Source of the DNA: a virus
Lineage: Duplodnaviria; Caudoviricetes
Length of the DNA: 54,649 nt
Direction: 5' to 3' (one strand)
IMG/VR virus record: IMGVR_UViG_3300012890_000076
Location: 1-54,649 of that record
The translations under genes were made by a program, and so were the position numbers. Below the pieces are notes generated by a model. That model worked only from the letters and a program-made list of their open reading frames with translations, had not been told where the DNA came from and made no database searches. Below, one piece after another: positions 8,184-31,284 of the stretch (position 1 is its first letter; each line of letters starts with the position of its first letter).

Positions 8184-8219
8184 TGTGCGCCCGACGTGCG
8201 ACCGACGGTGGGCGCACGC
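8184..8219 (+). repeat. Motif C, 36-bp element TGTGCGCCCGACGTGCGACCGACGGTGGGCGCACGC
   Basis: 35/36 identical to the reverse complement of 31249-31284. Confidence 0.9.
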
Positions 8220-8224
8220 TTCGG

Positions 8225-9133
8225 TCACTGCCCGTACAGCACCGTGCTGAGGCTGACGCTCCCGGGCACGGCCGCCTTCGCAACCACTTCCACGAGGCTG
8301 TCCGGGGACACGAACGTCTGCGCCTGGGCGACCGTGCTGAAGGTCGCTTTGGTGGAGTTGGCCGCGAATGACATCGTGCCGATGACTGCCCCGTCCACCT
8401 TCACGTCGAAGGCCACCGCGGCGGGCGCCGCCGGGGTCATGCGGGCGAGCGATCCCACCAGGCCGGACGCCAGGAGCGTGAACCGGGTCACGACCGTGCT
8501 GAGGACGGCGTCGCCGGCCGCGATGGGGCCCTTCCACCGCTCGCGCAGGTCGCGGGGCGTCGAGACGGACACGCGCTGCCACGAGAAGGAGTTGCTGGGC
8601 GCAGAGGTCGGGCCGACGTCGTCGAACGCCTGCCAAAGCGCCTGGTCGCCGCTGGGCGTCGTGTACGAGACCACCGCCCCCTTCGAGTAAGCCGCGTCGG
8701 GGTTGAAATTCCCGGCGTACGTCTGCGCGTCCGTGCCGCCCATTGCGGCGAGCGCCAGGCGGTTGGCGGTGACGTCGGTCGAGAGGGCTGCCGCCGCAAC
8801 GTGGCCCACGAGAGTGATGTACGAGGACCTGGTCGCCGGGACGTAGAACATGTCGCCGGTGTCATACCGGGCGCCGACGATCCTGCCCTCCGGACGCCAC
8901 TTCCACGGCGCGGCGGGGAGCGGGATGGTGGAGAGCTGCCGCCCTGTGGTGGAGGTCAGGTAGAACGAGCGCCCATCGGCCGCCATGACGCGATCCGCGA
9001 CGCCTTCGGCCTGGAGGCCCATGTCCTCAAGGCGAAGGATTCGGTTCCGGAGCCAGCGCATGGAAGCGGCGACGACGTTGGCCTTGAGGGGCTTCGTGCC
9101 GTCCCAGTCGGTGAAAACGTCGGGCGTGCTCAT
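8225..9133 (-). CDS. Putative tail/receptor-binding protein with CBM5/12-like carbohydrate-binding repeats
   Basis: Last gene of the tail operon; FNPDAAYSKGAVVSY...W and ARYDTGDMFY repeats. Confidence 0.6.
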   Translation of the reverse strand: MSTPDVFTDWDGTKPLKANVVAASMRWLRNRILRLEDMGLQAEGVADRVMAADGRSFYLTSTTGRQLSTIPLPAAPWKWRPEGRIVGARYDTGDMFYVPATRSSYITLVGHVAAAALSTDVTANRLALAAMGGTDAQTYAGNFNPDAAYSKGAVVSYTTPSGDQALWQAFDDVGPTSAPSNSFSWQRVSVSTPRDLRERWKGPIAAGDAVLSTVVTRFTLLASGLVGSLARMTPAAPAAVAFDVKVDGAVIGTMSFAANSTKATFSTVAQAQTFVSPDSLVEVVAKAAVPGSVSLSTVLYGQ

Positions 9134-9471
9134 GGGACGATCTGGCCTTTGACAGGGAATGTTGAGACGCCGGCGAAGGGGTCACCGGGAGCGCCCGCGA
9201 CCTGTTTGAACGACAGGATCTCCAGGCTTCCGCCGGGGGCATCCGGCTGAACCCTGGGCTGCTTAAGCTCCACCGGCAGGGCGGGGGTGATGATCCGCTC
9301 GCCCTCCTTCGTCGCGGTCGCGGCGTTGTTGCCGCTGAACAGGTTTGCGGTCTGCGGCGCGTTCGCCTCGGTCGTCGGCGAGCCGTACGTCGGCAGTGCC
9401 GGGTTCGGCCCGGGCGCCCCGGCGACGTCCTGGATGAGCGAGACGAGAGGGTCGGTGGACTTGGCCATCAT
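9130..9471 (-). CDS. Hypothetical tail-region protein
   Basis: ATGA overlaps on both sides; start MMAKST. Confidence 0.65.
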   Translation of the reverse strand: MMAKSTDPLVSLIQDVAGAPGPNPALPTYGSPTTEANAPQTANLFSGNNAATATKEGERIITPALPVELKQPRVQPDAPGGSLEILSFKQVAGAPGDPFAGVSTFPVKGQIVP

Positions 9472-11558
9472 GGCTCTCCCTGGTCGGTGAGGCGGATGCC
9501 GCGCGGGCACCACACCATGTCCGCGATGACGGTCCCCTTCCGGTCGACGACTGGCGCCACGACGAGCGGGCGCATCGCGAGCTCGACGTCCGTGTCGCCG
9601 AGGCCGTCGACGCTCATGGGGTCCTGTGCGGTCGCCGCGAGCGTCTTCCACTTGGCGATCTGCTCGTCGGCCTGGTTCCGCTTCCGGTAGCTGCCGCCGA
9701 GCGAGTAGCCGGGGTCCGAGAGCGCCGCCGGGTTCACGTTGAGGCGCAGGTCCTCCATCGCGAGCGTCCATTCGATGTCGGGACCGGCCGTGAGGTGGGG
9801 GGTGCCCTCCTCGACGTAGCCAGACTCGACGTACCCAGGTGCCACGTAGCTGCCGGCCGAGGCCTCCCTGGCCACGCCCTCGATGCCGGTGCCGGTGGGC
9901 ACGGCGAGCGTCAGCGTCACGGTCTCGCCGTCGTCACCGTGCCACCGCTCCTCGGCGCGCATGAGATAGCCGATGACTGGCTTGAGCTCGTCGGTGTCCT
10001 GCCTGCCGGGCAGCAAGATACGGATGGCGTCGATGAGGTCGAGGTCGACGCCGCCGGTCAGGTCCAGGAGATCGGCACGCTGCGCGGTGACGGTGACCGT
10101 CCACTCCATGAGCCTGTCCAGCCCGACCACGGCCATGCGCAGGAGTTGGTTCGCGATGGTCCCGCACCCACGGATGGTGGGCAGGAACTCGACGGCGGCC
10201 GGGTCGGCGAGCGCCGGCGCCACGTCCAACGGGATCCAGCGGGGATCGCGGACGCTAGTGACCGTGCCGGCGCTGAACTTCCCGACGGACTGGGATAGCC
10301 AGAACCCCGTGAGGCCGTCCACGCTCGCGCGGAATGCCTGGCCGCCCATGAGGACTGTATCGTCGCGGTTGTAGACCCGGTCGTCCTCGAACGGCCCGAG
10401 GCCGGACAGGCCCTCGATGCCGTGGGGGTCGCTGATCTGGACGTTCCCAAGGTCGACGAAGTCCACGACGCCCGTGGCGCCCGGCTGGATCGGGAACCTC
10501 AGCACGAGATCGAGGACCTCGCGGAGGGGTTGGTTCCACGAGTACGTCGCGAGCCAGGTGTCGAACAGGAACCGCTTGCTCTTGAGCCGGACGCTCTCCG
10601 TATGCCGCTGCGTGAACACCGGCCCGTACAGCGTGTCCGTCCTGGTGGTCGGCGGCGTCGTGTTGAGAAGCGTCTGGACGTAGCTGATGCGGCGGTACTG
10701 GACCTCCCATGCCCGGCCGGTATCGAGGGCCGCGGTCTGGCTCTCATACGTCCGGACGCCAGGCTGGCCGATGCTCCAGCCCGCGTTCTGGCTCAGGCCG
10801 CCGCTGCCGCTGCTGCCATAGCCGGTGAGGCTGGTGACTTCCCCAATCCAGGGACCGATGTTGCACGTGCCCCGGGCCGCGATGTTGAATGCCGAGATGA
10901 GCTTGCACCTGACCTCGCGCACTGCCCCCTTACCCGGCGTGACCTGGAGGCTGTCGGGGTCATAGACGTCGGCGATGTTGAGGACGCGCCGGCGCGTGCG
11001 GTGCATCCGCCAGGTCATCGCGTGGGTGACCGGATCGCAGTGCCAGTAGCCATGCCGCGTGAGGGGGATGCTGTCGGCGAGATACTCCAGGCGGCCCCTG
11101 AGGCGGTCCTGGTAGGGCAACTGCTCGGCGGTCGGGTCGGTGTCCCGAAGCGTCCCGTCCTCGTCGTACTCGCTCGGAAGCGGCACGCCGATCATGCCGG
11201 CGGCGACGACCTCCTTGGCGTCACGCACGGCGTCCGCATCCGGCGAGCATTCGACGTTGAGGGTGATGGTCTCGCCCGATACCGCCGGCGGCAGGCTGCG
11301 AATGGTCCCACGGCCGAGGATCCGCATCCCGGCAAGCGTCCCGTCGTCAGACTCGACGAGGGCACAGTAACGGGTCTGACCCGTCTCCCAGAGCTCCCAC
11401 CCCGGATTGTCGAGATCGACCGTCAGGTACGGCAGACCGTCGCGACCGCGGTTCCGGACGAACGACATGACTAGGTCGTCGGTGCCCTCGTCGTAGAGCA
11501 TCGCCTGCGTGATGGGCTGCTGAACGTCGTCCAGCCAGATGAGGTACGGCAGCGTCAT
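9468..11558 (-). CDS. Putative tail tip/hub protein
   Basis: About 696 aa, two genes after the tape measure; ATGA-coupled start MTLPYLIW. Confidence 0.7.
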   Translation of the reverse strand: MTLPYLIWLDDVQQPITQAMLYDEGTDDLVMSFVRNRGRDGLPYLTVDLDNPGWELWETGQTRYCALVESDDGTLAGMRILGRGTIRSLPPAVSGETITLNVECSPDADAVRDAKEVVAAGMIGVPLPSEYDEDGTLRDTDPTAEQLPYQDRLRGRLEYLADSIPLTRHGYWHCDPVTHAMTWRMHRTRRRVLNIADVYDPDSLQVTPGKGAVREVRCKLISAFNIAARGTCNIGPWIGEVTSLTGYGSSGSGGLSQNAGWSIGQPGVRTYESQTAALDTGRAWEVQYRRISYVQTLLNTTPPTTRTDTLYGPVFTQRHTESVRLKSKRFLFDTWLATYSWNQPLREVLDLVLRFPIQPGATGVVDFVDLGNVQISDPHGIEGLSGLGPFEDDRVYNRDDTVLMGGQAFRASVDGLTGFWLSQSVGKFSAGTVTSVRDPRWIPLDVAPALADPAAVEFLPTIRGCGTIANQLLRMAVVGLDRLMEWTVTVTAQRADLLDLTGGVDLDLIDAIRILLPGRQDTDELKPVIGYLMRAEERWHGDDGETVTLTLAVPTGTGIEGVAREASAGSYVAPGYVESGYVEEGTPHLTAGPDIEWTLAMEDLRLNVNPAALSDPGYSLGGSYRKRNQADEQIAKWKTLAATAQDPMSVDGLGDTDVELAMRPLVVAPVVDRKGTVIADMVWCPRGIRLTDQGEP

Positions 11559-12109
11559 GCCAGCACGACCAGCGTCAGGCCCCAGCCCTGGCGTCCCTCG
11601 ATCTCGGTCATCGTGCCATCGTCGATGGCCAGGACCTGACAGGGATAGATGGGCCTGTAGCGGACAATGACGTCGGTCCCCGGGATCGAATCGATCGTCA
11701 CAGTCTTCCCGACGACGGTGACCGGCACACGGGTATTCGTGTCGGCACGGTGCGCGATGACCGCATATCCGGACGCCTTCTTTGCGTCCGGGCACGGCGT
11801 GTAGCGGAGCACCACGTTCGTCAGGCCGGCCGGGATGACGGCGCCCTGGAAATGGATGGACTGGAGGAGGACGGGATCCCGAACGCGCAGGTGCTCCCAG
11901 CCCGGCGGCAAGCGATCCTTGCAGGTCAGCGTGATCTGGTGGATGCGCAGGTGCCTGGGACCGAAGATCTTCGGCACGCCCCGCCAGGTCGTCTTCACGG
12001 TGTGCTTCTGGAGGTCCTCGTGGGCCTCCTCGATGCCGAGCTCGGCGCCCGCCGCGAGGGGGACGCCCGAGATGCGGGCCCGGGTGTGCCAGGGAATCTG
12101 GGTGGCCAT
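11555..12109 (-). CDS. Putative distal tail protein
   Basis: Directly downstream of the tape measure; beta-rich 184 aa. Confidence 0.6.
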   Translation of the reverse strand: MATQIPWHTRARISGVPLAAGAELGIEEAHEDLQKHTVKTTWRGVPKIFGPRHLRIHQITLTCKDRLPPGWEHLRVRDPVLLQSIHFQGAVIPAGLTNVVLRYTPCPDAKKASGYAVIAHRADTNTRVPVTVVGKTVTIDSIPGTDVIVRYRPIYPCQVLAIDDGTMTEIEGRQGWGLTLVVLA

Positions 12110-12112
12110 CGG

Positions 12113-15100
12113 TCAGGTTCCGAAACGGTTGGAAGCGGCCCGGGCGCGGGCGAGTGCGTCTTGGTCCATGTAGCCAGGCACCCGGGCGGTCTCGCCGTCG
12201 GCCGACTTGAGCTCGAACACCACCGGCACGGGCGGGATCTGGCTGCGCGGGCCGTCGTACGCCGGCGGCTCCGTCCGAATGGGGCTCGGGGGCGGCGCGA
12301 CGTAGGCCTGGGCGAGGATGTCCGGGCGGCCGCGCTCAGCGGCGAGCGTCCGCTCCCACTCGACGGCGGCCTGGGCGCGCTCCCGGGCAAGCTGGTTCCC
12401 GAGCGGGGAGGCCCCGCCGACCTCGGCGTTCCGGGCGAACTGTCCCTCGACCTCCTTCAGCTTGCCGTCCGTGTCGTTGACCCAGTCGGCGAGCTTGCCC
12501 GTCCAGTCCTTGAGGAAGCTCAAGGGGCCGTCGTTCTGGGCGAGCTTGTAGACGCCCACCCCGCCGGCGACGCCGCCGAGGATGGCCATGCCCCAAGGCG
12601 TAGCGGCGAGCGCGCCGACCGCCTGGAGCTTCGTCAGGAGCCCGCCCAGCGCCGCCGTCAGGCCCCCAACCGCGGTTGCGGCGCCACCCGCCCCGGCGGA
12701 CACGGCCCCGCCGAGACCGAGGAATGCCGCGATCCACTTGAGCGGCTTCATGACCACGCCGAGAGCCATGCTCAGGCCGCCGAGCGTGCCGGTAAGCTTG
12801 AGGAAGGCCAGGAAGAAAAGGGCGCTCTCAAGGTTGATGCCGGACAACCCGACGATGGCGAACATCTGGTCGTAGACGGCCCTGAACCAGCCCCAGCCCT
12901 CCTTCGCGGCGTTGGCTACGAACAGGAAGCTGTCGGCGAGGCCCTTGGCATTGCCGAAGTTGAGGCCATCGAGCGCCGCCTGGGCGTCCTTCGCCGGCGC
13001 GCCGATCTGCGACCACACCAACGCGACGTCGGCGCCGACCTGCTGGAACCAGATCTGCCAGTTGCCGATGTAAGCCTTGAGGTCGTCGAGCGACTTCATC
13101 ATGCCGGCGAATGCCTGGCCCGGGCCGGTCATGGCCTCGCGGTCCCCGGCCCACACGGCGCCGAGGTCGGCCCACACGCGCCTCACGTCGTGCACGAACG
13201 TGATGACCTTCTCCTTGGCCGCCGGGATCCAGGCGAACTGATAGGACCCGACGTCCTGGTCGTTGCCGGTCAGCGCCGCCTTTAGCTCGAACGCCAGGCG
13301 CTGCGCCTGCGGGATGACCGCCGCGATGCTGTCCCGGATCTTGAGGAGCCACGGGAACTCGGTGACCTGCTGCCGGTCGTTGACGGCCGCGTAGAACACC
13401 TCGCCCGCGAACCGGCCGACGGCGCCGATGGCGGTCCGCAGCTTGATCAACCACGGGAACTCGGTGACCAGGGCATCGTCGCCGCCGATGGTGAGGATGA
13501 CCTCACGCGCCAGCCGCCCGGCCGCGAACAGGCCGGTCTGGAGATGCTTGACCCAGGGCATCTGGACGTTCGCGATCTTGTCCCCGGACATGGCGGCGAA
13601 CAGGGTCTTGACGGATGGCCACGCCTTCCGGGCGAGGTAGCCGATCCACGTCAGGCCGTTCCGGACGTCGATAAGCCACCGGTGCTTGATGTTCGGCTGG
13701 ATGACGATGCTCTGCATCTCGACGCCGGCCGCCTTGGCCGCGGCCTGGACCTTGGCGGTCTGGGTCGCGACGTCGCCGACGCTGTCATAGACTCCGTCCC
13801 AGCCGCCCTTCACGAGGACGTACAGGTCCGCCGTGTAGCTCAGTAGGGTGTCCGACCCGCGACCGAACGCGTTCGCGACGATGCCCCTGTAGTCGTTCAC
13901 GAGCTCCGCCAAGATGCGGAACGTGGTCGCGATCTGGGCGGACGAGCCGCCGGCAACCGAGTTCATGAACCCGGTCCAGGAGTCCTTGAAGTCAGAGACG
14001 CCACGGCGGGCGTTGTCGAGGGCGCCGATATCCCGCTCGTCGAGGAACGTGCCGGACCGCTGCATGCGCTCCTTGGACTTCGCCAGGAGGTCGGTGTCGG
14101 CCGCCAGGGCCTCGAACAACGGGATCAGCTTGGCCGCGTCGTCCTCGCCGAACATCTGGCTGAGGAACGCCACGCGCTCGGACGAGCCGAGGCGGTTGGC
14201 GGACTGGATCACCTCCAGGAGCGCCGCCTGCGTGCTCTTCACGTTGCCGGCCGCGTCGGTGGCGGAGATGCCGAGGCGTGAGAAATACTTGCCCAAGTCG
14301 CTGTCCGGCGACGTCGCGACGGCTTTCAACTGACCCTGGAACTGGATCAGCGACCCACGGATATCGTCGACCTCGATGTTGTACTTCTTCGCCGCCCCGA
14401 CGAGGGACTGATATGTGTCGAGGTCGAGGCCCGAGGACCGCGACGCGTTGACGATCTGGGCGCTGCGCTCGCTCGCGTCGGAAACCGCCTTGACCGTAAA
14501 TGCGGTCGCCCCGCCGGCCGCGGCTGCCCCGAGGGCCCCGCCCTTGAGCGCCGTGCCGGTTCCGATGCGGGCGACCGACGCGGCGCTGCGGGCCGCCGTC
14601 GTGCCGACGCGTGCCAACATGGACACCGCCGCCCCGCCGAGGTGAAGGGTGAGCTTCGAGGCGGCCGCAAATGCGGACGCGCCGATGCTGGCCACCGCGA
14701 GTGATGCCTTGGTGGCGGTCGAGGTGATGGTCGCGACCCCGGAAGCGGCGGCGCCGATGCCGCGGCCGGTGCCCGTGACCAGGCCGACGGCGAGCGCCCG
14801 GCGGGATGCCACCGTCTTCTCTCGCTCCTTCGCGACGGCCGCGGCCTCCTTGGCGGCCTGCTTCTCGGCGGCGGCCGTGGCCCGGGCCGCCTTCTCGGTC
14901 GCGCGGACGTCGTCGAGCTTCTGGCGCCGGGCGTCGCGATCTTGCTTGTCGGCGGCCCGGTCGGCAGCGCGACGGTCGCGGTCGGCCTGGCGATCCGCCT
15001 TGTCCGCGTCCCGCTCCGCCTTCCGCTCCGCGTCCCGTTCGGCCTTCGCCAGCGTCGCTGCGGCCTTGTCGTCCGCCCGGCGCTGGGCCGCGGCCGCGGA

Positions 15101-18100
15101 GGCAGCCTGGCGGTCCGCCTTATCGGCCGCGCGCTCAGCGGCACGAGCGGCGTCCCGGGCGGCACGGTCAGACTCCCGGGCGGCCTTCTCGATGGCCCGG
15201 CGCTCAGCGGAGGTCTTAGCCGCGGCGAGGCGCTCGGCCTTATCCGCGGCCCTCTCGGCCGCGCGCGCGGCGTCCCGGGCGGCACGGTCGACGAGCCGGG
15301 CGGCCTTCTCCTCCGCGCGCAGCCGGGCGGCCTCGGCCGCAGCGGCCTGGCGCTCGGCCTTCTCGGCGGCCCGCTCCGTCTCACGCTCCTGGGCGCGCTT
15401 CGTCCGCTCGGCCTTGTCGGCGGCGCGCTGGGTCGCGGCGCGCTTCCGGTCGGCGGCGCGCTCCTCACGATCCGCCTGGCGGTCGGCCTCACGCTTGGCG
15501 GCGATGGCTTCCCGAGCGGCACGCTCCTCAGCCTGAGCCGCCTTCCGGGCAGCCGCTTCAGTTGCCTGCCGGCGCAGGTCCGCCTCGCGCTCGGCGATCC
15601 TCGTCATCTTCTTTTCGAGGGCCTCGCGCTCCGCGATCTCCTCCCGGGCAAGGCGGACGCGCTCCGCCGCGGCGACCTCGGCCGCGGCGACGGAAGCCTT
15701 CCCGTTCGCGAGCTCGTTGCGGTACGCGGCGGTCGCGGCCTTAGCGCGCTCCAACGCAATAGTGCGTTCAGCCTTCGCAGACTCCAGCGCATCCATCCTG
15801 GCCCGGGCCTGGGCCTCGGACGCGACAGGCTTGTTGTACGCCTTCTGGGCGGCGTCTTGGCGGGTCTTGGCGGCCGCGGCGAGGGCGGCCGCATCGTCGG
15901 CAGCCTGTTTCGCGCGGGCCTCACGGGCGGACGCCGAGGCCCTGGTGTCCCCGATGTGGGACCGGGCCTCGTCCTCCGCTTCGCGAAGGATGCGGGCGTT
16001 CTCGCGGGCCGACAGGATGGCGGCCTCGCGCACGCCCTTCGCGTCGGTCGGCTTCCGGATGGCCGGGGCCCGGGCGGCGGCCGCACGGATCTCAGCCTCC
16101 TCCATGGACACGCGCGTCAGGGCCCGCTCCAGGGCCTCCCGGCGCAAGGTCTCCTGCTCGGCCGCATGGATCGCGGCGGCCGCCTCCTGCTCGTCCAGCC
16201 GGGTCCGGATGGCCGCTTGAATGCGGGCTTCCTCGGTCATCCGATCTTCGGAAACCTTGCGGACACGCTCCTCATCGAGGCGCAGGGCCGCGGCCCGGCG
16301 CGCCTGCTCTTCGGCCCTGGCCTCGGAGCCGATCCCCTGCTCGGCGCGTAGCTCGGCCCGGCGCGCGAGGGCGGCCTCGACCGCCTGGCGCCGGGACGCG
16401 AGAGCCTGGCCCCTGAGAGCCTCGTCCCGCTCGTCGTCCGGATTGAGACCCTTCACCACCCGGCGGGCCCCGGCGGCATCGGCACGTGCCAGGGCGAGCC
16501 GCTGCCGGGCGACGGTGACGGCGGGATCCTCCCCGACGCGGGAGGGCTGGGCCTTCGCCCGGACGGCGACTTCGGCGACGACGGCCCGGGTGACGGTCTT
16601 CTCCAGCGCGATGCGCTCGGCCGCGGCGGCACGCTCCGCGCGGACCTGGAGCATGGCCTCGCCCTCGACGGCGGCCGTGGCCGCCCGGGCCGCCGCGTAG
16701 GCATCCCGGACACGCTTCCGGTAATCGAGGGCGCGCATGACGGCCTGGCGCCGGTCGCGCGCCGCCTGACGGAGTTCGGCCTCGCGATCCTGCGCGGTCT
16801 CGGCCTGTCCCTCCGGACCGGCGGCCCATGCCTGGGTCGCGAGGAGCTCGGCCTTCTGCTGGCGGGCCTTGGCCCGGGCATCGAGGAGGGCGGAACGGGA
16901 TCCCCTCGTCAGGTCCGCATTGCGGTAACGGGCGAGGCGGGTGTCCCTGTCGCCGGGCATGTCGTCCTCGACGCCGGCGACGCGCGCTGCGGCGACGGCC
17001 GCACGGACCCGGGCCCGGGCGGCGAGGCGCTGCTCGACGAGGGCGCGTCGCTTGGCTTCGTATTCGGCCATGCCGTCGGGACCGAGGTCCTGGTCCCGGC
17101 TCATGGCGCGGACCTCGCGCCACGGCTTCCTGAGGGCTGCCAGGTCGGTCCGGGCGTCGGCACGACGTCGGGCCTCGGCCGTGGCATAGACCCCGTCGGT
17201 GGCTGCCGCGCGTGCGACGGCGGCGGCACGTAGCTGGATCTCCTCGGCCCGACGCTCCTCAGCCTGAGCGGCGGCACGGGCGGCACGGGCCTCATCGGCG
17301 GCGGCCTGGGCGGCGGCCCTCTCGGACGCCTCGCGCTCACGGTTGATCCGCGCGTCGACAACGGCCTGAGCACGTGCGGCCGCAGCCTCCCGGGCGGGTG
17401 CGTCTGCCTGATCGAGAACGCCCTTGGCCGTGGCGGCGGCGCGGGCATCGCGCAGCCGGGCTCGGGCCGCGAGGGAAGCCTGGGCTGCGGCGACGCGTTG
17501 GTCCCGGGCGGCATGTGCCGCGGCGAGGGCCTCGTCAGATCCGTCCCGTGTGTAGTCCTCAACCGCCAGCCTGTAGTCGACACGGGCGCCACTCGACGCG
17601 CTTCGGGCGGTCTGCATGTCGGCACGGGCAGACTGCACGCCGGCGATGGCAGCCTTGCCCCCGGCCGGAAGCCGCTTCTTCGCGGCCTTGGCCTCGGCCA
17701 TGACGCGGACGTCGATCTGCTCCTTGGTGACGGCCGTGAGCTTCCGCTGGAGGGCCTCCTGCTCGCGCTCGGCGGCCTCGGCGACGGCCACCATCTCGCG
17801 GGCGGCCGCCTTCTCGGCGCGGAGCTCGGCACGGTCTTGGAGACGGGTCTGGACGGCGGCCCGGCGGGCGGCGGTCGCGGCCTGCAACTCGTCGGAGCGA
17901 GCCATGGCCTCCGACATGTCGGCGTTGTCGAGAGCGCCCCGGGCCTTGCGCTGGTTGACCCGCGCCAGGTCCGCGCGCCACTTGCCGGCGGCCGCCAGGT
18001 TCTGGGCCTCCTGGACCCGCATGGCCGCGGCGGCCCGGGCGGCATCGGCGGCCGCGCGGGTCGAGTTGGCGGACGACGCCGAGGTGGCGCTGTCCATGCC

Positions 18101-18202: not shown

Positions 18203-18218
18203 GGCGGGGGCTCTCCTG

Positions 18219-19060: not shown

Positions 19061-19064
19061 GGGC

Positions 19065-19892: not shown

Positions 19893-19904
19893 CGGGGCCT
19901 CCTG

Positions 19905-20366: not shown

Positions 20367-20409
20367 CTGGCTCTCTCGCTACGTGCGAGAGGGAGATTCC
20401 GGGGTGGCC

Positions 20410-20430
20410 CGTGGCCCGTGCAAGGTCACG
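20410..20430 (-). promoter_or_regulatory. Motif A copy (CGTGACCTTGCACGGGCCACG), putative late promoter/operator
   Basis: Exact 21-mer, intergenic, upstream of the tail genes. Confidence 0.75.
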
Positions 20431-20459
20431 CCCCGCGTGCGGCCGACGTGCGCCCAACG

Positions 20460-21020
20460 CTACTCGGCGCGGGCCAGCGTCAGCTTGCGCCAGAGGCCCT
20501 GCCAGGCCTCCACGGCGAGCACCTGGTAGGTCTCGCCCGCGACCACGATGGTGGCGGCCCCGGAGGTCCTGCGCTGCCGAAAGCGGAACACGGTCGATTG
20601 GGTCAGGGCGGCGATCTCGTCGCCGTCCTCCAGATCCTCCAAGGCAAGCTGTCCGGCGACCGCCAGCTTCAGGGTGGCTGTGTCCGCCTTTGCGGTCACA
20701 AGCTGCGGCTGCTTGAGCTGAAGCTTCACGAGGCCACCGCCGTCATCGAGGGCGACGTGGATCTCCCAAAGTGCGCCCTCGGCGTAGATCATGTCGCCGA
20801 TCTCGACCTCGGGCGCGGCCGCCTTCTCAATGGATGCCAGGTCCTCGGCATCGAGCATGGGGACCTCCCCATCCATCCGGGACCGGACGAGCTCGGTCCG
20901 GATGAAGGTGGCCCGAAGGGAGACCGTGCCATGGGCGCGGCTCTCCAGGAGCGCGGGCCCCGACGCCGGGTGGGCCATGACCAGCGTCCGGGCGAGAACG
21001 GCAAACAGGGGCGAGGTCAC
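20460..21020 (-). CDS. Putative head-closure/head-tail joining protein
   Basis: Position between head and tail genes; two short beta-barrel-like halves (gpFII-like). Confidence 0.5.
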   Translation of the reverse strand: MTSPLFAVLARTLVMAHPASGPALLESRAHGTVSLRATFIRTELVRSRMDGEVPMLDAEDLASIEKAAAPEVEIGDMIYAEGALWEIHVALDDGGGLVKLQLKQPQLVTAKADTATLKLAVAGQLALEDLEDGDEIAALTQSTVFRFRQRRTSGAATIVVAGETYQVLAVEAWQGLWRKLTLARAE

Positions 21021-21559: not shown

Positions 21560-21570
21560 GGCGGGAGTCC

Positions 21571-23022: not shown

Positions 23023-23030
23023 AAGGGTCC

Positions 23031-23234
23031 TCAGGAGGTGGGCAGGACGGAGCCGTCCATGCGCAGGCGGGGATCGTCGAGGCGGACGCCGGGGTCAGTC
23101 AGACGCCAGGCGCCGGCGGACGGGACGGTGACGGCGGCGGTTCTGCCGGTGGACAGCCGGACGAGAACGGTGGAGGGGCCCGTGCGCTCGGCGCCCACGA
23201 CCCGGGTCGGCGGCGGGCGGTAGTCGCCGATCAT
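23031..23234 (-). CDS. Small hypothetical virion-region protein
   Basis: ATGA-coupled, GAGG RBS. Confidence 0.55.
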   Translation of the reverse strand: MIGDYRPPPTRVVGAERTGPSTVLVRLSTGRTAAVTVPSAGAWRLTDPGVRLDDPRLRMDGSVLPTS

Positions 23235-23605
23235 GCCTCGCCCCCAACGGTGGCGGCCGCCAGCACGCGCAGGTCGAGGTCGCCCTGCGCGTCTGCGATG
23301 ACGACGAGGTCGGCCTGGGCGGCGTCGGGGAGGAGGAACGTCCAGACGCCCTCCGGCAGGGGGAACAGGGCGGCGCGCATCTGGTCGGGCGTCTTCCCGG
23401 CGACCTGGCCGCGGTGCCCAACGTAGAGCGTGCGCAGAGCCGGGACGACGAGCATGACGACGCTGGCCGCGGAGGCCAAACCGGCGTCGAGGCTGCGGGC
23501 CTCGGTCGCCTTCACGGCCACGGCCGAGGCATGGCCCCCGAGCGGGAAGGCCTGGACGGCAGCGCCGCCTTCGTAAACGGCGGCTGAGACGTACTTGTCG
23601 GCCAT
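23231..23605 (-). CDS. Hypothetical virion-region protein
   Basis: First ORF after the capsid terminator; GAGG RBS. Confidence 0.65.
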   Translation of the reverse strand: MADKYVSAAVYEGGAAVQAFPLGGHASAVAVKATEARSLDAGLASAASVVMLVVPALRTLYVGHRGQVAGKTPDQMRAALFPLPEGVWTFLLPDAAQADLVVIADAQGDLDLRVLAAATVGGEA

Positions 23606-23617
23606 GGGCCCCTCGAT

Positions 23618-23651
23618 GAGAAAGGGCCCGCCCGGGGTGCGGACGGGCCCT
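23618..23651 (-). terminator. Rho-independent terminator after the major capsid gene
   Basis: Minus strand AGGGCCCGTCCG-cacc-CCGGGCGGGCCCT followed by TTCTC. Confidence 0.7.
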
Positions 23652-23678
23652 CGTTTCAGGACGGATGGAGGGCGGCGC

Positions 23679-24719: not shown

Positions 24720-24745
24720 TGCCGTTGCTCCTGTCGCGGCCGCGC

Positions 24746-25147
24746 TCAGCGGGCCCGGAAGATGATGCCGCGGGCGGCGGCCGCCTCGGCGATGGCGTCG
24801 AAGAGATCGGCCGTCTCGGCGGCGTCGGCTCCCACGGGGAAGTCGATGCGGTCCGAGACCACCTCTGCGTCGCGGCAGAGGTTGGCACCCAGCACGCGCT
24901 CACCGGGGGCGCCCGCCTCGACCTCGGCGACGAGGAAGCCGGCGAAGGTCTGGGTGGCGGGGACGGCGATCAGGCCCGCCCCGGCGGGGACCACCGCGCC
25001 GGCCGCGGTGCGGGCGAGCGGGGTGGACGCGCCGTACCGGGTGTCGGGGGTCAGCTTCACGGTCTCGTAGGACCGGTCGCCGAGGTCGGTGAGGATGAAG
25101 TCGGCGTCGCGGTGACGCTCTTCGATGCGGTAGGTCTCGGTGCCCAT
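24746..25147 (-). CDS. Head decoration protein (gpD-like)
   Basis: DFILT...RSYETV...RDAEV...ARGIIFR; between protease and capsid. Confidence 0.8.
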   Translation of the reverse strand: MGTETYRIEERHRDADFILTDLGDRSYETVKLTPDTRYGASTPLARTAAGAVVPAGAGLIAVPATQTFAGFLVAEVEAGAPGERVLGANLCRDAEVVSDRIDFPVGADAAETADLFDAIAEAAAARGIIFRAR

Positions 25148-25160
25148 GACGGGAGATTCC

Positions 25161-26219
25161 TCAGTTAGCCTGGCCGGCGCGGTGAGCGACGTAGGCGGAG
25201 CGGGTCAGGAGGGCGGGCTTCTGGGCTCCACCACCCGAGGATCGGGTGACGGAGATCTCGCCGCCGCTGGTGGCGATGGCCGAGACCGCGACGGTGCGGA
25301 GCTCCTCGACCGAGGCGCCGCCGGCGGCGAGGCCCTCGAAGTCCGCGATGCGGCCGTTCCGCTGCGCGACGCCCCGGAGCGCGTCGACCTGGGCCTTGCG
25401 CGCCGCATCCACGGCCGGGGTGGCGACGGGGAGCACGGGGGCGGACCGCTGCGACAGGCGGGCCTCGGCGGACGCCAGGGCGGAACGGGCGGCGTCGACC
25501 TCGGCCTGGATGGCGGCGACGTCCTCGACGACCGGGGGCGTCACGACGGCATCGGGCACGATGACGGGAGCGGTGATCTCGGCGGGGGTCTTGTCGGTCA
25601 CGTCGGTGGCTCCTGAGCGGATGCGCGCGGTGTTGTCCGCGGGGACGGCCACAAGTGACGCCTCCCGCGGCTTCCACCGCTTGATGGTGATGAGGGGGAC
25701 CTGGCCGGCGCGCAGGCTCATGGACTGCTCGACGATGTCGAAGCCCACGGACACGGACCGGATGATGCCGTCCGCGATGTCGGTGGCGATGTCCTTCACG
25801 CCGTCCCGCTGGGACAGGCGGCCCGTGCAAACGAGGGCGCCGCCGTCGAGCCGGGCGCTCTCGATGACGCCCACGATGGCGTCGAGCGCGTAGTAGTAGT
25901 GGGAGTTGAGGATGGACGCGCCGACGAGTTGGTCGAGCTCCTCGGCGCCCCTGATGTCGAGCTGCTCCTCGACCGCGTGCCAGCGGGCGTACTCGTCGCC
26001 GTCAGCCTGGTAGTAGCGCTCGGACTTGACCGGCTTTCCGGACGCGAGCGTGAACTCGAATGTGCGGGTCTCGGGATCGAAGGAGGACGAGGAACCGGCG
26101 CCCGAACGGGTCACCAGGTCCCCGTCCCTCAGGCCGCGACGGACCGTCGGCGCGAGGGGCGCCTTGGGGGTCGTCGGGGTCTCGGGAACGGTGGTGGACA
26201 AGGACGGGTGCTCCAGCAA
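25161..26219 (-). CDS. Prohead maturation protease (HK97/U35-type) with C-terminal scaffold region
   Basis: ILNSH, IRSVSVGF, EASLVAVPAD motifs. Confidence 0.88.
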   Translation of the reverse strand: MLEHPSLSTTVPETPTTPKAPLAPTVRRGLRDGDLVTRSGAGSSSSFDPETRTFEFTLASGKPVKSERYYQADGDEYARWHAVEEQLDIRGAEELDQLVGASILNSHYYYALDAIVGVIESARLDGGALVCTGRLSQRDGVKDIATDIADGIIRSVSVGFDIVEQSMSLRAGQVPLITIKRWKPREASLVAVPADNTARIRSGATDVTDKTPAEITAPVIVPDAVVTPPVVEDVAAIQAEVDAARSALASAEARLSQRSAPVLPVATPAVDAARKAQVDALRGVAQRNGRIADFEGLAAGGASVEELRTVAVSAIATSGGEISVTRSSGGGAQKPALLTRSAYVAHRAGQAN

Positions 26220-26242
26220 TTTCTGAAGCTTCCGGGGCCGGG

Positions 26243-26263
26243 CGTGGCCCGTGCAAGGTCACG
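26243..26263 (-). promoter_or_regulatory. Motif A copy upstream of protease/capsid genes
   Basis: Exact 21-mer in a 58-bp intergenic gap. Confidence 0.75.
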
Positions 26264-26277
26264 CCTGAGAGGTCCTC

Positions 26278-27909
26278 TCAGACCTTGTCGTCATCCAGCA
26301 CGCTGTCCTCGCCGGAGGCGGCGTCGACGATGTCGCGCTCGCGGGTTTCCTCCGCCTCGGCCTCCGCGAGGACGCGCTGGGCCACGGGGGTCTCGAAGGT
26401 GCCCCGGGCGGCACCGGCCACCAAGCCGAGCGTCGCGGCCCTGGCAGCCGCCTTCGCGGCGCGGCGGTCGCGGACCTCGGGGCGGATCCCGAACATGCTG
26501 GTGGTGACGGTGTCGGGATCGATGATGTTCGCGTCGATGGCCTTGAGCATGCCCGCGATCTCCTGGCTCTGCCGGGTGATCTGCATGGCGGGCCACTGCC
26601 ACTCGCACATGTAGGCCTCCCACAGGGGACGGCCGGGCGGCGGGGTCCATAGCCCGACGGCGACGGCGGCATCGACGAAGTCGACCCGGGACGGATTGAA
26701 GAACTGATGCTCCAGCATCGAGTGCTCGATGTCCGCCTTGCGGCGCATGCTGATGCCGGCGAACGACATGGCGCGCTCGGTGATGCTCTCGACGTCACCG
26801 GTGACCTCGTGGACCGGGGTGCCCATGCCCGCGCAGAGGTAGAGCAGGTTCAGCCTCACGGTCTGCTGGAAGTTGGCGTTCGGGGGCGGCTGCATCATCT
26901 TCGCCTTCACGCCCGCAGGCAGGCGCCCGATCATGCCCGGCGACATGACGATGTCGTCGATGAGCGACCGCATCTCCTCCTCGTCCGGTCCCTCCTCACC
27001 GTCCGGCAGGTCCTCCTCCAGCATGATGGAGAGGTACTGGGAAGTGAGCATGTTGCGGATGTTGGCGTCCTCGAACTCGAAGTTCTTCAGGGCGCGCAGG
27101 ATGCCGGCCGCCAGCGGGACGTCGGGGCGGACGGCACCGGTCTCGGAGGGCACGTGGATGTGGTAGAACTCGTTGGCCGGGACGCGGGTCTGCTCCAGCG
27201 GCACGAACGACCCCATGGGGTCGGAGGTCCGGGGATGCCGGTTGTAGGGCCAGTAGGCGGCCCTGCACTCAATGGGGTCGAGCTCGACGCCCTGGATGAC
27301 GCGGCCACCCGGGGCGATCTGGTTCCCCTCCGACTGGGTAACGTTGTTGCCGGTGGTCAACTGCTGGCTCGACAGGGTCTGGAACTGCACCGGCACCAGG
27401 AGGCCACGCTCGGGCACCAACGACCCGTCGCGGAGCCTCTGCACCCGGCGGGTCCGGCGCCGGATCATCCCCTCGCCGTCGAGGAGGTAATCCCGGTAGG
27501 TGTCGTTGCGGATGAGGGATCCGAGGTCCTGTCCGCCGCGGGCGTCGAACCGGGCAGAAGCCATGCAGTAGAGGTCGTCGAGCTCGGGGTACTTGGACAC
27601 GGGCACCGGGCCCGTGCTGACCATGAGCTCGCACGTCTTGTTGATGAGCGACTTCACCCAGTTGTCGTTGCGGTACTGGTTCCTGACCAGGTTCTGGCTA
27701 GGACGCATGTACCGGATGGCGTCGTAGGGCCCGAGACTCTGGGTCTGGGGCACCAGGCCTGAGGTCGATGCCGCCAGATACGCGGGTTGGACCCGGCGCT
27801 GGGAGGGGGCCGTCCCGAAGCTCGTGGCCGAGCGGGTGCCGTCGGGCGCGAAGACGCCGCGGATCGCGCTGCCGGCGCGTGCCAGAAGGCCGGGGGGTGG
27901 TGCGCGCAT
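26278..27909 (-). CDS. Portal protein, lambda family
   Basis: RNQYRND, LLDGEG, IQGVELD...AYW...HP, GMIGRLPAG, EVTGD. Confidence 0.9.
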   Translation of the reverse strand: MRAPPPGLLARAGSAIRGVFAPDGTRSATSFGTAPSQRRVQPAYLAASTSGLVPQTQSLGPYDAIRYMRPSQNLVRNQYRNDNWVKSLINKTCELMVSTGPVPVSKYPELDDLYCMASARFDARGGQDLGSLIRNDTYRDYLLDGEGMIRRRTRRVQRLRDGSLVPERGLLVPVQFQTLSSQQLTTGNNVTQSEGNQIAPGGRVIQGVELDPIECRAAYWPYNRHPRTSDPMGSFVPLEQTRVPANEFYHIHVPSETGAVRPDVPLAAGILRALKNFEFEDANIRNMLTSQYLSIMLEEDLPDGEEGPDEEEMRSLIDDIVMSPGMIGRLPAGVKAKMMQPPPNANFQQTVRLNLLYLCAGMGTPVHEVTGDVESITERAMSFAGISMRRKADIEHSMLEHQFFNPSRVDFVDAAVAVGLWTPPPGRPLWEAYMCEWQWPAMQITRQSQEIAGMLKAIDANIIDPDTVTTSMFGIRPEVRDRRAAKAAARAATLGLVAGAARGTFETPVAQRVLAEAEAEETRERDIVDAASGEDSVLDDDKV

Positions 27910-27910
27910 A

Positions 27911-28198
27911 TCAGTAACCGATGTCGTGGGAGGGCCGGGTCCACCGGATACGGCGGCGTGCCTTGTCGACCTTGGGAGGCGGAGGGGGCCGCGGCGTGCC
28001 GTTGATCTCGGCGATCCGGCAGCGCATCTCCCAAATCGAGTAGCGGGCGCTGTCGGGGGTCATGAATTGAGCCCCGCCACCTGGACCGGTGATCTGGACC
28101 GCGCCGGCCGAGACCTGAGACTGGAGATGGTCGATGCCGGCACGGCATCGTTCCTCGCTCCATTCCGCGTAGGTGTTCCAGGTCGCCATCGTCACCAT
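27911..28198 (-). CDS. gpW-like head-tail joining protein
   Basis: Small gene between terL and portal as in lambda; SAGAVQI pattern. Confidence 0.6.
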   Translation of the reverse strand: MVTMATWNTYAEWSEERCRAGIDHLQSQVSAGAVQITGPGGGAQFMTPDSARYSIWEMRCRIAEINGTPRPPPPPKVDKARRRIRWTRPSHDIGY

Positions 28199-30489
28199 CC
28201 GAGGCCGCGATGGAGGACGCCATACCGGCGCTTGCCCTCCCGCACCGGGGCCTCGGCGGCGTTGGGAGGTCCGCCCCGGGGCTTGTCACCCGAGATGCGC
28301 CGGACGCCTGAAAGGCGCGGCGCCTCCGCCGGGGACGGCGCAGGGCGAGGTTCATCCCGCGAACCGTCCGGCTCCACCCGTGGCCCGTGCAAGGTCACGG
28401 GATCCGCCGCGGCCCGACGTGCGCCCGACGCCGGCACGTTGTCCGCATTTGCGGTCACAGGCGGCTTTGGGCGGTTCCGCTTCTTCCGCATCGGCATCAC
28501 CTCCGGGTCGAGCGACATGGCGTTCCTCGATTTCGTGCTCTTGGCGCCCTGCCAGATCATGGCCGCGAGGGAATAGACGACGCAGTCCAGCACCTCGTTC
28601 GAGACATGGTCCTGCCCGGGCGGCTTGCCCCACCAGCAGATGTCCGCGTTCGCCGGGTCGTGGTGGAGGATCTCGGCGGTCAACTGCTGGAAGAAGTCGG
28701 TGCCCCGCAGGGTGCCCGAGAACCGGAACGAATAGGGCTGCCCCGGTTCGATGCGCAGGCAGTCGTCGATGTGGTCCTTGAGCCCCTGGGTGCCGACGTA
28801 ATCGAAGTCGATGCCACCGCTCTTGTCCGCGTTGCGGGGGCGCTTGGTGATCGGCTTGGCCCGGTTCTGGCGGTAGCCCTTGGCCTCCTTCCGCCCCTTG
28901 AACGGGATGATCTTCCGGCGCTTGCTCTCGCGCAGCCGGCAGAACGCCAAGGCCTTCTGGGTCAGGTAGCCGATGTCGACGCCCACGCGGGACGGGTACA
29001 GGACGGTGCCGTCCGGCTTCTCCCACCCCTCGTCCAGCATGGCCCAGATCTGCCGGGCGGCGTCGGGGCCGAACGGGTCGATGGGCTCCCAATCCTGGTG
29101 GATCTCACCGTCGTCGTCGACGAGCTCGATGGCGGTGCGGTCGATGATGCGGCGGCCGAGGATGAACTTCTCCTCGTTCCGGCCGACGCCCGTGAACACG
29201 GCCTCGTGGCGAGGCAACTGGTTGCGCCGGTGCGAGCCCTCCTGGGTGTCGATGCCGACGAGGATCTCCTGGACCTCCTGCGGGCACGGGGCGTCGAAGT
29301 CCTCGCACCGAGCCTCAAGCTCGTCGGGATCCGTCTTGCCCTCGACCTCAGGCGTGTAGGGCTTGGCCAGCCACAGGTTGACCCAGTTCTGTCGGCGCGT
29401 CGGGTCGCGAAGCTGCGCCCGGTACTCCTTGATGATCTCGGCCCACGCGGACTGCGGATCCTTGGAATGGATCGCCCACGAGTAGATGCCCCAATGCCCC
29501 TCGTCCGCCGTGTCCGCCGCCGTGGCGACGATCTCGCCGGCCTCCATGACGTCGTTCTTGGCGATGGGCTCCGAGAGCCACTTCTTGCACCCGGCGCACT
29601 CGTAGCCGATCTCGACCGCCTTCCCGGCGTCGTCGCACCTGAACTTGAGCCCCGGACCCGGAATCTCGCCCTTCACCCCGGCCTGGCTGACGTTGGGCAG
29701 GAACTCCTGCGGAGGGGCGTCGCAGCATGGGAAGGGGGCCATGAGCACGCCCTTGTCGGACCGCTCCCACTCCAGCGCGACGACGCAGTTCGGGGTCGTG
29801 GGCGTGCCGCCGGCGTAGACCTTCGGGTCGAAGTACTCGGCCGCGCGCCGGGCGGCGAGCTCGATCTTGTTGCCCTCGGACCCCTTGCCCTTGGCGAGGA
29901 AGGCCGGGTCGCCGGTCTCGTCGGCTGCCACCAGGTAGCCGCGGATGGCCTTGAAGGCGGCGTCGATCTGCACGCCGCGAAGCTGGATGACCGCCCCGTT
30001 CGCCAGGTAGATGTCGGTCCACGCGTCCTTGACCTCGGCCCCGGCCGTCTCGCGGATGAGGTGCCGGAGCGACGTCGACGCCTGAAGGATCGGCTTGAGC
30101 TTCTTGTCGTGGAAGTCCTGCGCGTCCGGGATCGTCCTCTCGTAGAAGATGACGTCCTGGGCCTCGTAGCAGGCGAAGTAGAGGAGGAGCAGCGCCAGGA
30201 GGAGCGAGGAGCCCGCCCGGGGGGGCTTGAGGTAGACGACCCGGCGGACGCCCTTCTTCTGGAAGGCGCGGGCGATGGCGCGCTGGATGACGTCCAGCAC
30301 CACGGGCCCGGGGCGAGACCCGTTCGGGATGACGCAGTTACCCTCGATCCACGCGACGATGTCGACGTAGGGGTTCGGCACCAGGTGGGTGCAGGCCTCG
30401 ATGAGGTTGTCGCAGAAGGCCTCGAAGCCGGGGAGCGCGAGCTCGACGACGGCGGCCCGGACCTCGGGGCTAAGCTCGACGGGTTGCAT
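28192..30489 (-). CDS. terL: Terminase large subunit, lambda GpA family
   Basis: KPPRAGSS Walker-A variant, AADE Walker B, GGTPT, GIDTQ, QLTAE, NEVLDCVVYSLAA. Confidence 0.93.
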   Translation of the reverse strand: MQPVELSPEVRAAVVELALPGFEAFCDNLIEACTHLVPNPYVDIVAWIEGNCVIPNGSRPGPVVLDVIQRAIARAFQKKGVRRVVYLKPPRAGSSLLLALLLLYFACYEAQDVIFYERTIPDAQDFHDKKLKPILQASTSLRHLIRETAGAEVKDAWTDIYLANGAVIQLRGVQIDAAFKAIRGYLVAADETGDPAFLAKGKGSEGNKIELAARRAAEYFDPKVYAGGTPTTPNCVVALEWERSDKGVLMAPFPCCDAPPQEFLPNVSQAGVKGEIPGPGLKFRCDDAGKAVEIGYECAGCKKWLSEPIAKNDVMEAGEIVATAADTADEGHWGIYSWAIHSKDPQSAWAEIIKEYRAQLRDPTRRQNWVNLWLAKPYTPEVEGKTDPDELEARCEDFDAPCPQEVQEILVGIDTQEGSHRRNQLPRHEAVFTGVGRNEEKFILGRRIIDRTAIELVDDDGEIHQDWEPIDPFGPDAARQIWAMLDEGWEKPDGTVLYPSRVGVDIGYLTQKALAFCRLRESKRRKIIPFKGRKEAKGYRQNRAKPITKRPRNADKSGGIDFDYVGTQGLKDHIDDCLRIEPGQPYSFRFSGTLRGTDFFQQLTAEILHHDPANADICWWGKPPGQDHVSNEVLDCVVYSLAAMIWQGAKSTKSRNAMSLDPEVMPMRKKRNRPKPPVTANADNVPASGARRAAADPVTLHGPRVEPDGSRDEPRPAPSPAEAPRLSGVRRISGDKPRGGPPNAAEAPVREGKRRYGVLHRGLGW
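28379..28399 (-). promoter_or_regulatory. Motif A copy inside the terL 3' end, upstream of gpW/portal
   Basis: Exact 21-mer. Confidence 0.7.
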
Positions 30490-31084
30490 GGTCGCGCATG
30501 GCCTGGTCGACGGCCTTGGCCCCCTCGCCGAGGGCGCCGGCGCAGTAGCCCTTGGCCTTGTCCCGCCAGCGGTCCACGAGGTCCGGGGGGAAGCCGGCCA
30601 TGTCCCGGCAGATTCGGTCCGGGATCGACATCACGGCCTGGCGGATGATGCCGTTGGCCCGCTGCTGCGCCTCGACCATGGGGGCCCGGGGCACCAGGTC
30701 CTTGAGGCGCTCGCCGACCCGGGAGAACCGGTCCATCGCCTGCGCCGCCTTGTTGGGATCGGTCATCCCCATCCACCCCTCGAAACCGCCGGCGACGGCC
30801 TTGGGGGCGTTCTTGACGGCGTCCGTCCGGGCCTGGGTCTCGCGCCAGTCGATGAACTTGCGGACGTCGATGTGGTAGCCGACCCCGTGCCAGCCGTCCT
30901 TCTCGACTGGCAGCCCCTTCCTGCGGATCCACTCTGAGAGGGTGTCCCGGTGGTAGCCGGTGATCTCGGCGAGCTCGACGATGTTGACGACCCGGCCCTT
31001 GGGAGCCTCGTCCGCATTTGCGGTCACGGGTTCGCCGGCGAGGTCCTCGCCGTCCCGAATGCCGGATCCCGTCCCCTCAGCCAT
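30470..31084 (-). CDS. terS: Terminase small subunit, Nu1-like
   Basis: VNIVELAEITGYHRDTLSEWIRRKGLP...YHIDVRKFIDWR winged HTH; overlaps the terL start. Confidence 0.88.
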   Translation of the reverse strand: MAEGTGSGIRDGEDLAGEPVTANADEAPKGRVVNIVELAEITGYHRDTLSEWIRRKGLPVEKDGWHGVGYHIDVRKFIDWRETQARTDAVKNAPKAVAGGFEGWMGMTDPNKAAQAMDRFSRVGERLKDLVPRAPMVEAQQRANGIIRQAVMSIPDRICRDMAGFPPDLVDRWRDKAKGYCAGALGEGAKAVDQAMRDHATRRA

Positions 31085-31248
31085 GCCCTCGTTTCCGCAT
31101 TCCAAAACCGACGTCCGCATTTGCGGTCAGTGACTTGGCTCCGATCCGAATGCGGAATGCGGAACCGATTTGAAAAAATTCACACTCAGCGAGGTGTCAC
31201 GGGCGAATGCCTCCCCGCACGCCACAGGGGGCCTCTGGGGTCCCCATC

Positions 31249-31284
31249 GCGTGCGCCCACCGTCGGGCGCACGTCGGGCGCACA
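31249..31284 (-). repeat. Motif C copy, inverted relative to 8184-8219
   Basis: GCGTGCGCCCACCGTCGGGCGCACGTCGGGCGCACA. Confidence 0.9.

Follow-up and report, generated by a model that had tools for sequence, protein, structure and literature searches.

The stoperators of phages L5 and Bxb1, the P1 C1 operators and the conserved inverted repeats of phiC31 are single sites of 13–17 bp, present in 14 to 30 or more copies and bound by the immunity repressor. The invertible segments Mu G (Gin), P1 C (Cin) and that of Salmonella (Hin) measure 1–4 kb, carry alternative tail-fibre ends, lie adjacent to a serine invertase and have crossover sites of approximately 26 bp with a 2-bp core, and the REP/BIME elements of enterobacteria are found in hundreds of chromosomal copies. 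Here, we describe motif C, a repeat family in a provirus of the Caudoviricetes (IMG/VR record IMGVR_UViG_3300012890_000076; 69% complete by CheckV, GC content ~70%), of which the whole record of 54,649 nt was analyzed and is referred to as the window. Two 36-nt copies of motif C stand in inverted orientation on either side of the 23-kb virion module.

Like the stoperators and the P1 C1 and phiC31 sites, motif C is a short, phage-specific repeat at intergenic early and late sites near promoters or operon borders, and relatives have their own versions. Unlike them, it occupies five loci as arrays of 11-bp units, and the immunity-like switch of the window (5366–5413) uses a different box. Units of about one helical turn, direct and inverted, in varying number and beside promoters, are likewise seen in the 11-bp iterons of R1 parC (ParR), the heptads of the omega repressor, and the P2 Cox and 186 Apl boxes. 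Unlike in those systems, no ParM/ParR, ParA/ParB, ribbon-helix-helix or Cox-like gene was recognized in profile scans, and the prophage is integrated.

We favor, with about even confidence, the reading of motif C as an array of sites, at operon junctions, for a sequence-specific, fast-evolving DNA-binding protein. Its 11-bp boxes (consensus GTGCGCCCGAC), direct and inverted and in helical phase, would form a family specific to the phage lineage and could seat several protomers on one face of the helix. The sites would be L1, at the end of the tail operon and in front of the XRE-like genes g10 and g9; L2, in the leader between the late-promoter-like motif A and terS; L3, in the divergent region between a replication-like leftward operon and the rightward early operon; and, immediately before two internal motif A copies, sites of two units each. 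The effect would likely be cis-regulatory or architectural, such as repression or a roadblock at operon borders, possibly with bridging between sites, and the inverted orientation of L1 and L2 would be incidental to function. The analysis shows the repeats, the way they are phased, where they lie outside genes and the private arrays that relatives have at equivalent sites; that a protein binds them, which protein it is and what regulation follows are inferred.

Anatomy and placement of the motif C copies

L1 (8184–8219, +) reads TGTGCGCCCGACGTGCGACCGACGGTGGGCGCACGC and is identical at 35 of 36 positions to the reverse complement of L2 (31249–31284), the sole mismatch being at position 18 (A vs. 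C). This inverted identity, reported in the first-pass annotation, is borne out by direct comparison and by a repeat search that lists the pair as 36 nt, 97% complementary, with arms 23029 nt apart. The placement given there for the two copies holds as well: the edge of L1 is 5 nt from the stop of the last tail gene at 8225, and L2 lies 128–164 nt upstream of the terS start at 31120. Both copies are made, as had been proposed, of an 11-bp unit; each holds three such units in a row, of which two are direct (GTGCGCCCGAC) and the third is inverted. In L1 these are GTGCGCCCGAC, GTGCGACCGAC and the inverted GGTGGGCGCAC.

L1 is located in a 113-nt gap between the tail-fibre-like gene (8225–9133, −) and g10 (7776–8111, −), and is non-coding according to the GC content of third codon positions (GC3) and to gap analysis. 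L2, inverted relative to L1, occupies part of the gap of 633 nt that precedes terS. It has a motif A copy 175 nt upstream (in the sense direction) and directly abuts a block conserved in relatives (GATGGGGACCCC ... CGTGCGGGGAGGCATTCGCCC). L3 is an expanded array with the orientation of L2. It had been described as 47124–47172 and is real, but the array runs longer (47110–47172), with at least four boxes on one helical register (CGTCGG at 47114, 47135, 47156 and 47167; spacings of 21, 21 and 11 nt). L3 lies within the 297-nt non-coding gap, devoid of a GC3 signal, of the divergent genes 46259–47020 (−) and 47318–47668 (+), the start of the former being set by homology to the relative G001.

The two partial copies that the first reading had placed at 20437–20459 and 28412–28430 are both genuine. 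The first (20437–20459) is a direct copy of two units, GTGCGGCCGAC GTGCGCCCAAC, without an inverted partner, of which 20437–20458 is a match with two mismatches; it begins directly after the stop of gene 20460–21020 (−) and is 6 nt upstream, in the sense direction, of the motif A copy at 20411–20430. The second (28408–28430), also direct, contains an exact unit junction (CCGACGTGCGCCC, 28414–28426) and is located in the non-conserved 3′ tail of the open reading frame (ORF) of terL, 8–14 nt upstream (in the sense direction) of the motif A copy at 28380–28399.

Four of the five loci (L1, L2, L3 and 20437) are non-coding; non-coding sequence makes up 9.7% of the window under the working gene list (59 calls by codon-position GC; profile searches with Pfam, PHROGs and NCBIfam). 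Several significant, mainly non-coding copies near a promoter-like motif are the pattern of a dispersed operator or binding-site array, and the copies are helically phased as in an operator array, by 11-nt units in L1 and L2, by the spacing of the boxes in L3 and by consecutive 11-mers in G001.

Chance is excluded as the source of the arrays. Two tandem units (22 nt, up to 3 mismatches) are matched three times in the window (0.01 expected), and the unit junction CCGACGTGCGCCC (up to 1 mismatch) seven times (0.83 expected), a number reached in none of 100 shuffles; one of the seven, at 37041, is probably a chance match. The single 11-mer is not enriched in the window (8 matches vs. 6.06 expected; 23 of 100 shuffles reach 8), and neither is GTGCGCCC by itself (13 vs. 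7.76), so that the signal resides in the arrays and not in the word.

Private repeats in related prophages

Among the relatives found, G001 is syntenic with the window (35 of the 59 working gene calls match, at 36–84% amino acid identity) and G002 matches 23 of the 59. Scans of the viral_contigs collection with the single proteins TerS, TerL and g10 gave nothing, or G001 only, and a 14-mer repeat graph of whole records was dominated by GC-rich low-complexity matches. Another record, G005, was found by a pattern scan for motif A and rejected as unrelated (62% GC, no tblastn matches, no motif C).

Motif C is absent from the syntenic G001. The G001 gap between the tail-fibre gene and g10 contains five boxes of a different sequence, GGNCCATNNGCGG (0.14 expected; none of 200 shuffles reach five), and four of these boxes are present in its early divergent gap (0.04 expected). 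On inspection, these two large arrays are runs of about 9–10 consecutive 11-bp units. A terS-proximal GGNCCATNNGCGG box lies just upstream of the motif A copy before terS. By our own rough estimate, the probability of the large G001 arrays coinciding with L1 and L3 of the window is P ~0.03 (16 gaps of at least 90 nt). Downstream of its early array, G001 (L017) encodes a Tad2-like (anti-Thoeris) protein and an ArdC-like anti-restriction protein (2482–2985, 3600–4457), and three tandem 26-nt repeats (GGCCGCAACGCAGTGGAGGACGGCAA) are found beside this array at about 2110–2200.

The element of G002 comprises three exact copies of the 21-mer GTGCGCACAAGTGTGCACAGG within a longer mosaic, located upstream of terS, at the end of the minus-strand late cluster and in the gap between portal and protease genes. 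The core CCGACGTGCGC is common to this element and motif C. At the level of sequence, each of the three related prophages has a private repeat of its own, and these repeats occupy equivalent junctions. A Chi-like polar element was considered, as all five loci of the window flip orientation at the putative cos, but the G001 boxes do not, and the idea was rejected.

The block upstream of terS (31130–31247, −) is conserved in the window, G001 and G002 in a three-way alignment. It contains a GGGGWCCCC palindrome, CGTGCGGGGAGGCATTCGCCC and the AT-rich TTGTGAAATTTT, and is a candidate cos site or late leader. L2 is found at the 5′ edge of this block, where G001 and G002 have unrelated sequence.

Beyond the record, motif C was not found above chance in viral, genome, metagenome, plasmid and phage collections, which do not include the host chromosome and may lack records near-identical to this one. 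The 22-nt two-unit pattern gave no match in viral_contigs and seven in genome_contigs, none of them in Methylobacterium. The five of these seven loci with scanned flanking ORFs all lie beside unrelated housekeeping or ordinary genes (glycerate kinase, 6PGD, MoxR, asparagine synthase), and given these flanks the tandem 11-mer arrays in genome_contigs were treated as chance repeats. A pattern of one unit plus an inverted unit gave one partial match in metagenome_contigs, and blastn with a 45-nt element returned only matches with E values of 0.2–0.7 in plasmid and phage collections. The titles retrieved in a literature search on Methylobacterium temperate prophages and terminase mention no such repeats.

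A proposed binding array and its alternatives

Looping operators or iteron-like sites had been named as a fallback in the first-pass annotation. This agrees with the 11-bp phasing, the non-coding placement and the lineage-private arrays, but the version specific for a Rep protein is weakened, because the relaxase-like ORF of the window is 82% identical in G001, which has different arrays. Several observations weigh against a protein-binding array. No binder is assigned: Pfam, PHROGs and NCBIfam leave most candidate genes unnamed, and an Atlas look-up of the ORF beside L3 (46259–47020) gave no usable match. The products of g10 and g9 are 83 and 75% identical to their G001 homologs and were rejected as binders, being too conserved between the phages to explain different boxes. 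The immunity-like switch uses TTTCAACA(A/C)C boxes, so motif C does not serve as the main repressor operator. The terS-proximal box of G001 is single and not significant (1 vs. 0.23 expected; 39 of 200 shuffles). In G002, every copy starts no more than about 10 nt from a stop codon and has a T-rich run after it, a layout closer to that of gene-end or terminator modules. With only two usable relatives, the coincidence of positions carries modest weight, and the sharply bounded 36-nt identity of L1 and L2, between unrelated flanks, also fits a copy-and-paste cassette.

Such a cassette would be a neutral or selfish repeat without a dedicated function (for example a REP/BIME-like insert, a miniature palindromic element, or the outcome of slippage and gene conversion) that accumulates in the few insertion-tolerant gaps of the phage family. 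We regard this as rather unlikely. Compared with G001, L2 looks like extra sequence beside the shared GCGCACGC, the G002 element is a mosaic with one sub-part inverted between loci, and tandem arrays of the same 11-mer arise by chance in unrelated genomes. The likeness to REP/BIME elements, which are GC-rich imperfect palindromes of 35–40 nt just after stop codons, mosaic and in either orientation, points the same way. Unlike REP/BIME, however, motif C has no copies elsewhere in the five collections named above. L1 and L2 lack target-site duplications in their flanks, as read from the sequence, and no transposase or RAYT-like gene was found in Pfam and other profile scans of the window genes. 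The 11-bp phasing is strict over 6–10 turns in two phages, which is not a known feature of REP elements, and relatives with different sequences use the same junctions.

A structural hairpin on RNA or single-stranded DNA, acting as a terminator (with or without a factor), an attenuator or a 3′-end stabilizer at gene ends, is in our view unlikely. L1 would then end the tail operon, L2 would be a leader terminator like lambda tR′, and each phage would homogenize its own hairpin. The internal hairpin described in the first reading is present as an 8-bp GC stem (GTGCGCCC/GGGCGCAC) in L1, L2 and L3, in which the first unit pairs with the inverted third unit, but its fold is no better than that of shuffled sequence. 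In seven of eight contexts RNA folding gave z-scores between +1.1 and −1.6 (tail-operon sense context of L1, +0.2; L3, −0.1 to −0.3), and only the sense context of L2 stands out (−34.1 kcal/mol, z −2.4, 3 of 200 shuffles as stable). A hairpin would suit the location of L1, 5 nt past a stop codon, and of the 20437 copy, immediately past one, the GACCCC...GGGGTC hairpin that G001 has at the L2 position together with the CCGCGG palindromes in its arrays, and the G002 elements, which follow stop codons and precede T-rich runs. It would not suit L3, located between divergent gene starts where no transcript ends, or the two partial copies, which hold only direct units and therefore cannot form a hairpin; moreover, L1 and L2 are opposite on one transcribed strand, and therefore their loops differ. 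No T run follows any of the copies read, so that the stem-loop is not joined to the U-tract of an intrinsic terminator, scans of 7000–9500 and 30500–33200 yielded no terminator-like sites, and no Rfam family was matched at the gathering score.

With respect to candidate binders, the recognition helices of TerS and of the small helix-turn-helix (HTH) protein g5 vary among the three phages, and the recognition helix plus wing of the TerS HTH differ in all three (YHRDTLSEW, FDRGTLSEW and WDRGTIDAW). As a special case of the binding array, the units could be recognition boxes of TerS, with L2 as a cosB- or cosQ-like accessory site and the other copies as secondary sites; we consider this quite unlikely. 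In its favor, besides the variable helix and wing, L2 abuts the block conserved upstream of terS in three phages, a copy of the private element precedes terS in each phage, and phased direct and inverted boxes resemble the lambda R sites and the SPP1 pac boxes. The arrangement is also like that of the lambda cosB R sites with gpNu1, cosQ, and SPP1 pacL/pacR with G1P, in that L2 lies by a conserved block upstream of lambda-type terS/terL genes and has repeated boxes, one of them inverted. Unlike in those systems, further copies are located 23 kb and 16 kb from terS. G001 has its large arrays at the L1 and L3 positions and one box near terS, and the stretch from the block to terS contains conserved CCGCATTC repeats that are no worse as cosB candidates. 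In addition, the window and G002 share the core CCGACGTGCGC, yet their TerS helices are not the more similar pair.

A broader proposal, held with comparably low confidence, is that each Methylobacteriaceae prophage lineage has a private 11-bp-phased ‘address label’ at the same three junctions (the tail-operon end, the late leader by cos, and the early anti-defence/replication control region). This label would be read by one fast-evolving protein, possibly TerS in a role beyond packaging. Binding and bridging would couple packaging, late transcription and early or replication control, and would establish a lineage-specific compatibility group that is separate from repressor immunity.

Sites for a relaxase-like or Rep protein, as iterons or MOBQ-type nick sites, would be another special case of the binding array, and a very unlikely one. 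The ORF 44300–45646 (−) has a weak match to the MobA/VirD2 nuclease family (PF03432, E = 1e-3, 19.8 bits, below the cut-off of 24.6), L3 is located at the head of that leftward operon, and its spacing of 21–22 nt is iteron-like. PMC3832669 quotes NWACCNNTAAGTGCGCCCTYNN as the MOBQ oriT consensus, with GTGCGCCC as its core, but only this 8-mer matches and the flanking consensus bases do not; a core-only match, with a relaxase-like ORF below the Pfam cut-off, does not make a MOBQ oriT nick region. The G001 homolog of the ORF is 82% identical over residues 42–333, yet in G001 GTGCGCCC occurs at 4 scattered sites and forms no intergenic cluster, and G002 has the CCGACGTGCGC core but no homolog of the ORF. 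A PDB sequence search found nothing. Elsewhere, AAGTGCGCCCTC at 20769–20780, within gene 20460–21020 on the opposite strand, matches 12 MOBQ oriT core bases, probably by chance.

The first-pass annotation had preferred to read L1 and L2 as sites at which recombination inverts or exchanges the 23-kb virion module, serving as an on/off switch; this, and the related reading as ends of a transposon-like cassette, we consider extremely improbable. In its favor, two inverted 36-nt copies exactly flank the block from terS to the last tail gene, repeats of transposons or invertase sites have about this length, and, as in Mu G/Gin, P1 C/Cin and Hin, a phage segment with tail genes among its contents lies between inverted repeats of a few tens of bp. 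Unlike in those systems, the segment is here the whole 23-kb virion module, from terS to tail fibre, extra copies exist and no invertase is seen: a search for the Resolvase family (PF00239) in six frames of the window gave no match at E ≤ 1, where the control matches 13 of 14 genomes. The geometry of 8-bp arms and a 17-nt spacer fits neither hix/gix sites (12-2-12) nor tyrosine-recombinase cores, and the longest uninterrupted identity between L1 and L2 (18 nt) is short by the standards of RecA recombination. The third copy and the two partial copies do not suit an invertible or transposable unit with two ends, and transposon ends were rejected for lack of a target duplication and of a transposase. 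In the single sequencing run with this DNA (a DNA run; no RNA run is listed), a 1181-nt contig crosses L2 colinearly (30666–31846) and the lone opposite-strand joint is the 36-nt repeat itself; colinearity is weak evidence here, because rare forms would be invisible in contigs. In both G001 and G002 the module has the same orientation relative to its two flanks, without breakpoints at the sites. On the best-supported reading, the 23-kb module is not an invertible segment and the opposite orientations of L1 and L2 play no part in rearrangement; a virion module flanked by a long inverted pair is not necessarily invertible.

If the motif C arrays are protein-binding sites, they would represent an unrecognized regulatory layer in an almost unstudied group among the temperate phages of alphaproteobacteria. 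This layer would diverge faster than the immunity-like switch and the late-promoter-like motif, which are both conserved between the window and G001. Lineage-private cis sites at conserved positions offer a handle to find the cognate protein by co-variation, with more relatives.

Neighboring motifs and genomic setting

Motif A (sense CGTGACCTTGCACGGGCCAC) is an imperfect palindrome with seven copies in the window (0.01 expected), at 20411–20430, 26244–26263, 28380–28399, 31459–31478 and 32740–32759 (+) and at 35608–35627 and 51983–52002 (−). Every copy is oriented with the genes downstream of it (major tail cluster, protease, gpW/portal, terS, g31, lysin and glycosyltransferase). Near-identical copies are present in G001 and a diverged version in G002. 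Motif A looks like a late promoter or the site of an activator, and the 690-aa sigma-r4 protein encoded at 33053–35125 may be the protein that uses it.

The AT-richer divergent region of g6 and g7 (5366–5413) contains the four TTTCAACA(A/C)C boxes, two direct and two inverted, and looks like a lysis-lysogeny switch; the box TTTCAACAAC of this region is also present in G001 (one box). The palindrome TCCGCAWWTGCGG occurs 21 times on both strands (3.0 expected), for instance at 14665, 21331, 28442, 31011, 31114, 36755, 36919 and 39804, and also in G001; it may be an operator family for one conserved HTH protein. Between g31 and motif A, a dense CCCATGG-rich array of 29–30-nt units, two direct and one inverted, is found at 31488–31747. 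This array is confined to its gap, and the equivalent gap of G001 (~290 nt) is without it. Just after L3, upstream of the rightward operon, GAACGGATTATGAAC at 47184–47198 fits what we take to be the alphaproteobacterial LexA box, GAAC-N7-GAAC; its count is not significant (1 match vs. 1.27 expected), and it was rejected as a LexA box.

To judge from its sequence, the window is a lambda-like cos prophage, with a Methylobacterium-type alphaproteobacterium as its host. The best relatives of the window terL are from Methylorubrum (72%, a prophage of Methylorubrum sp. DB1722), Methylobacterium and Bosea, for which reason the host is taken to be an alphaproteobacterium of the Methylobacteriaceae type. 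These homologs speak against an actinobacterial phage, which the 70% GC might have suggested. The nearest terL from a cultured phage is 26% identical. The minus strand carries a lambda-type virion module, recognized by Pfam and PHROGs matches. It includes terS (30470–31120, −; small terminase subunit with an HTH, phrog_57, E = 2.5e-13, HTH_17) and terL (28192–30489, −; gpA family), together with genes for a lambda-family portal, prohead protease, gpD-like protein, E-type capsid protein, major tail protein and tape measure (2029 aa). The last gene of the tail cluster is the tail-fibre-like gene next to L1, with a weak tail-fibre match (phrog_7049, E = 2.4e-4) and a G001 homolog of 50% identity. 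Downstream of L1, g10 is XRE-like by eye, with a weak HTH_37 match (E = 0.17), and g9, just downstream of L1 with g10, is also XRE-like by eye. An integrase-like ORF (1–1449) with a weak tyrosine-integrase match is the sole recombinase recognized. A CHAP lysin (35890–36426) and a Rha/ANT gene (39979–40833) were also identified.

The GC fraction falls to 0.60 across 48000–52000, a likely cargo island that carries a second D12-class adenine methyltransferase (49898–50824) and adjoins a VbhA-like ORF (48069–48296). An 87-nt tRNA-Ala called by ARAGORN at 53759–53845, within the glycosyltransferase ORF, is probably a false call. The tape-measure gene contains three 120-nt tandem repeats at 15060–15419, with 64–100% identity.

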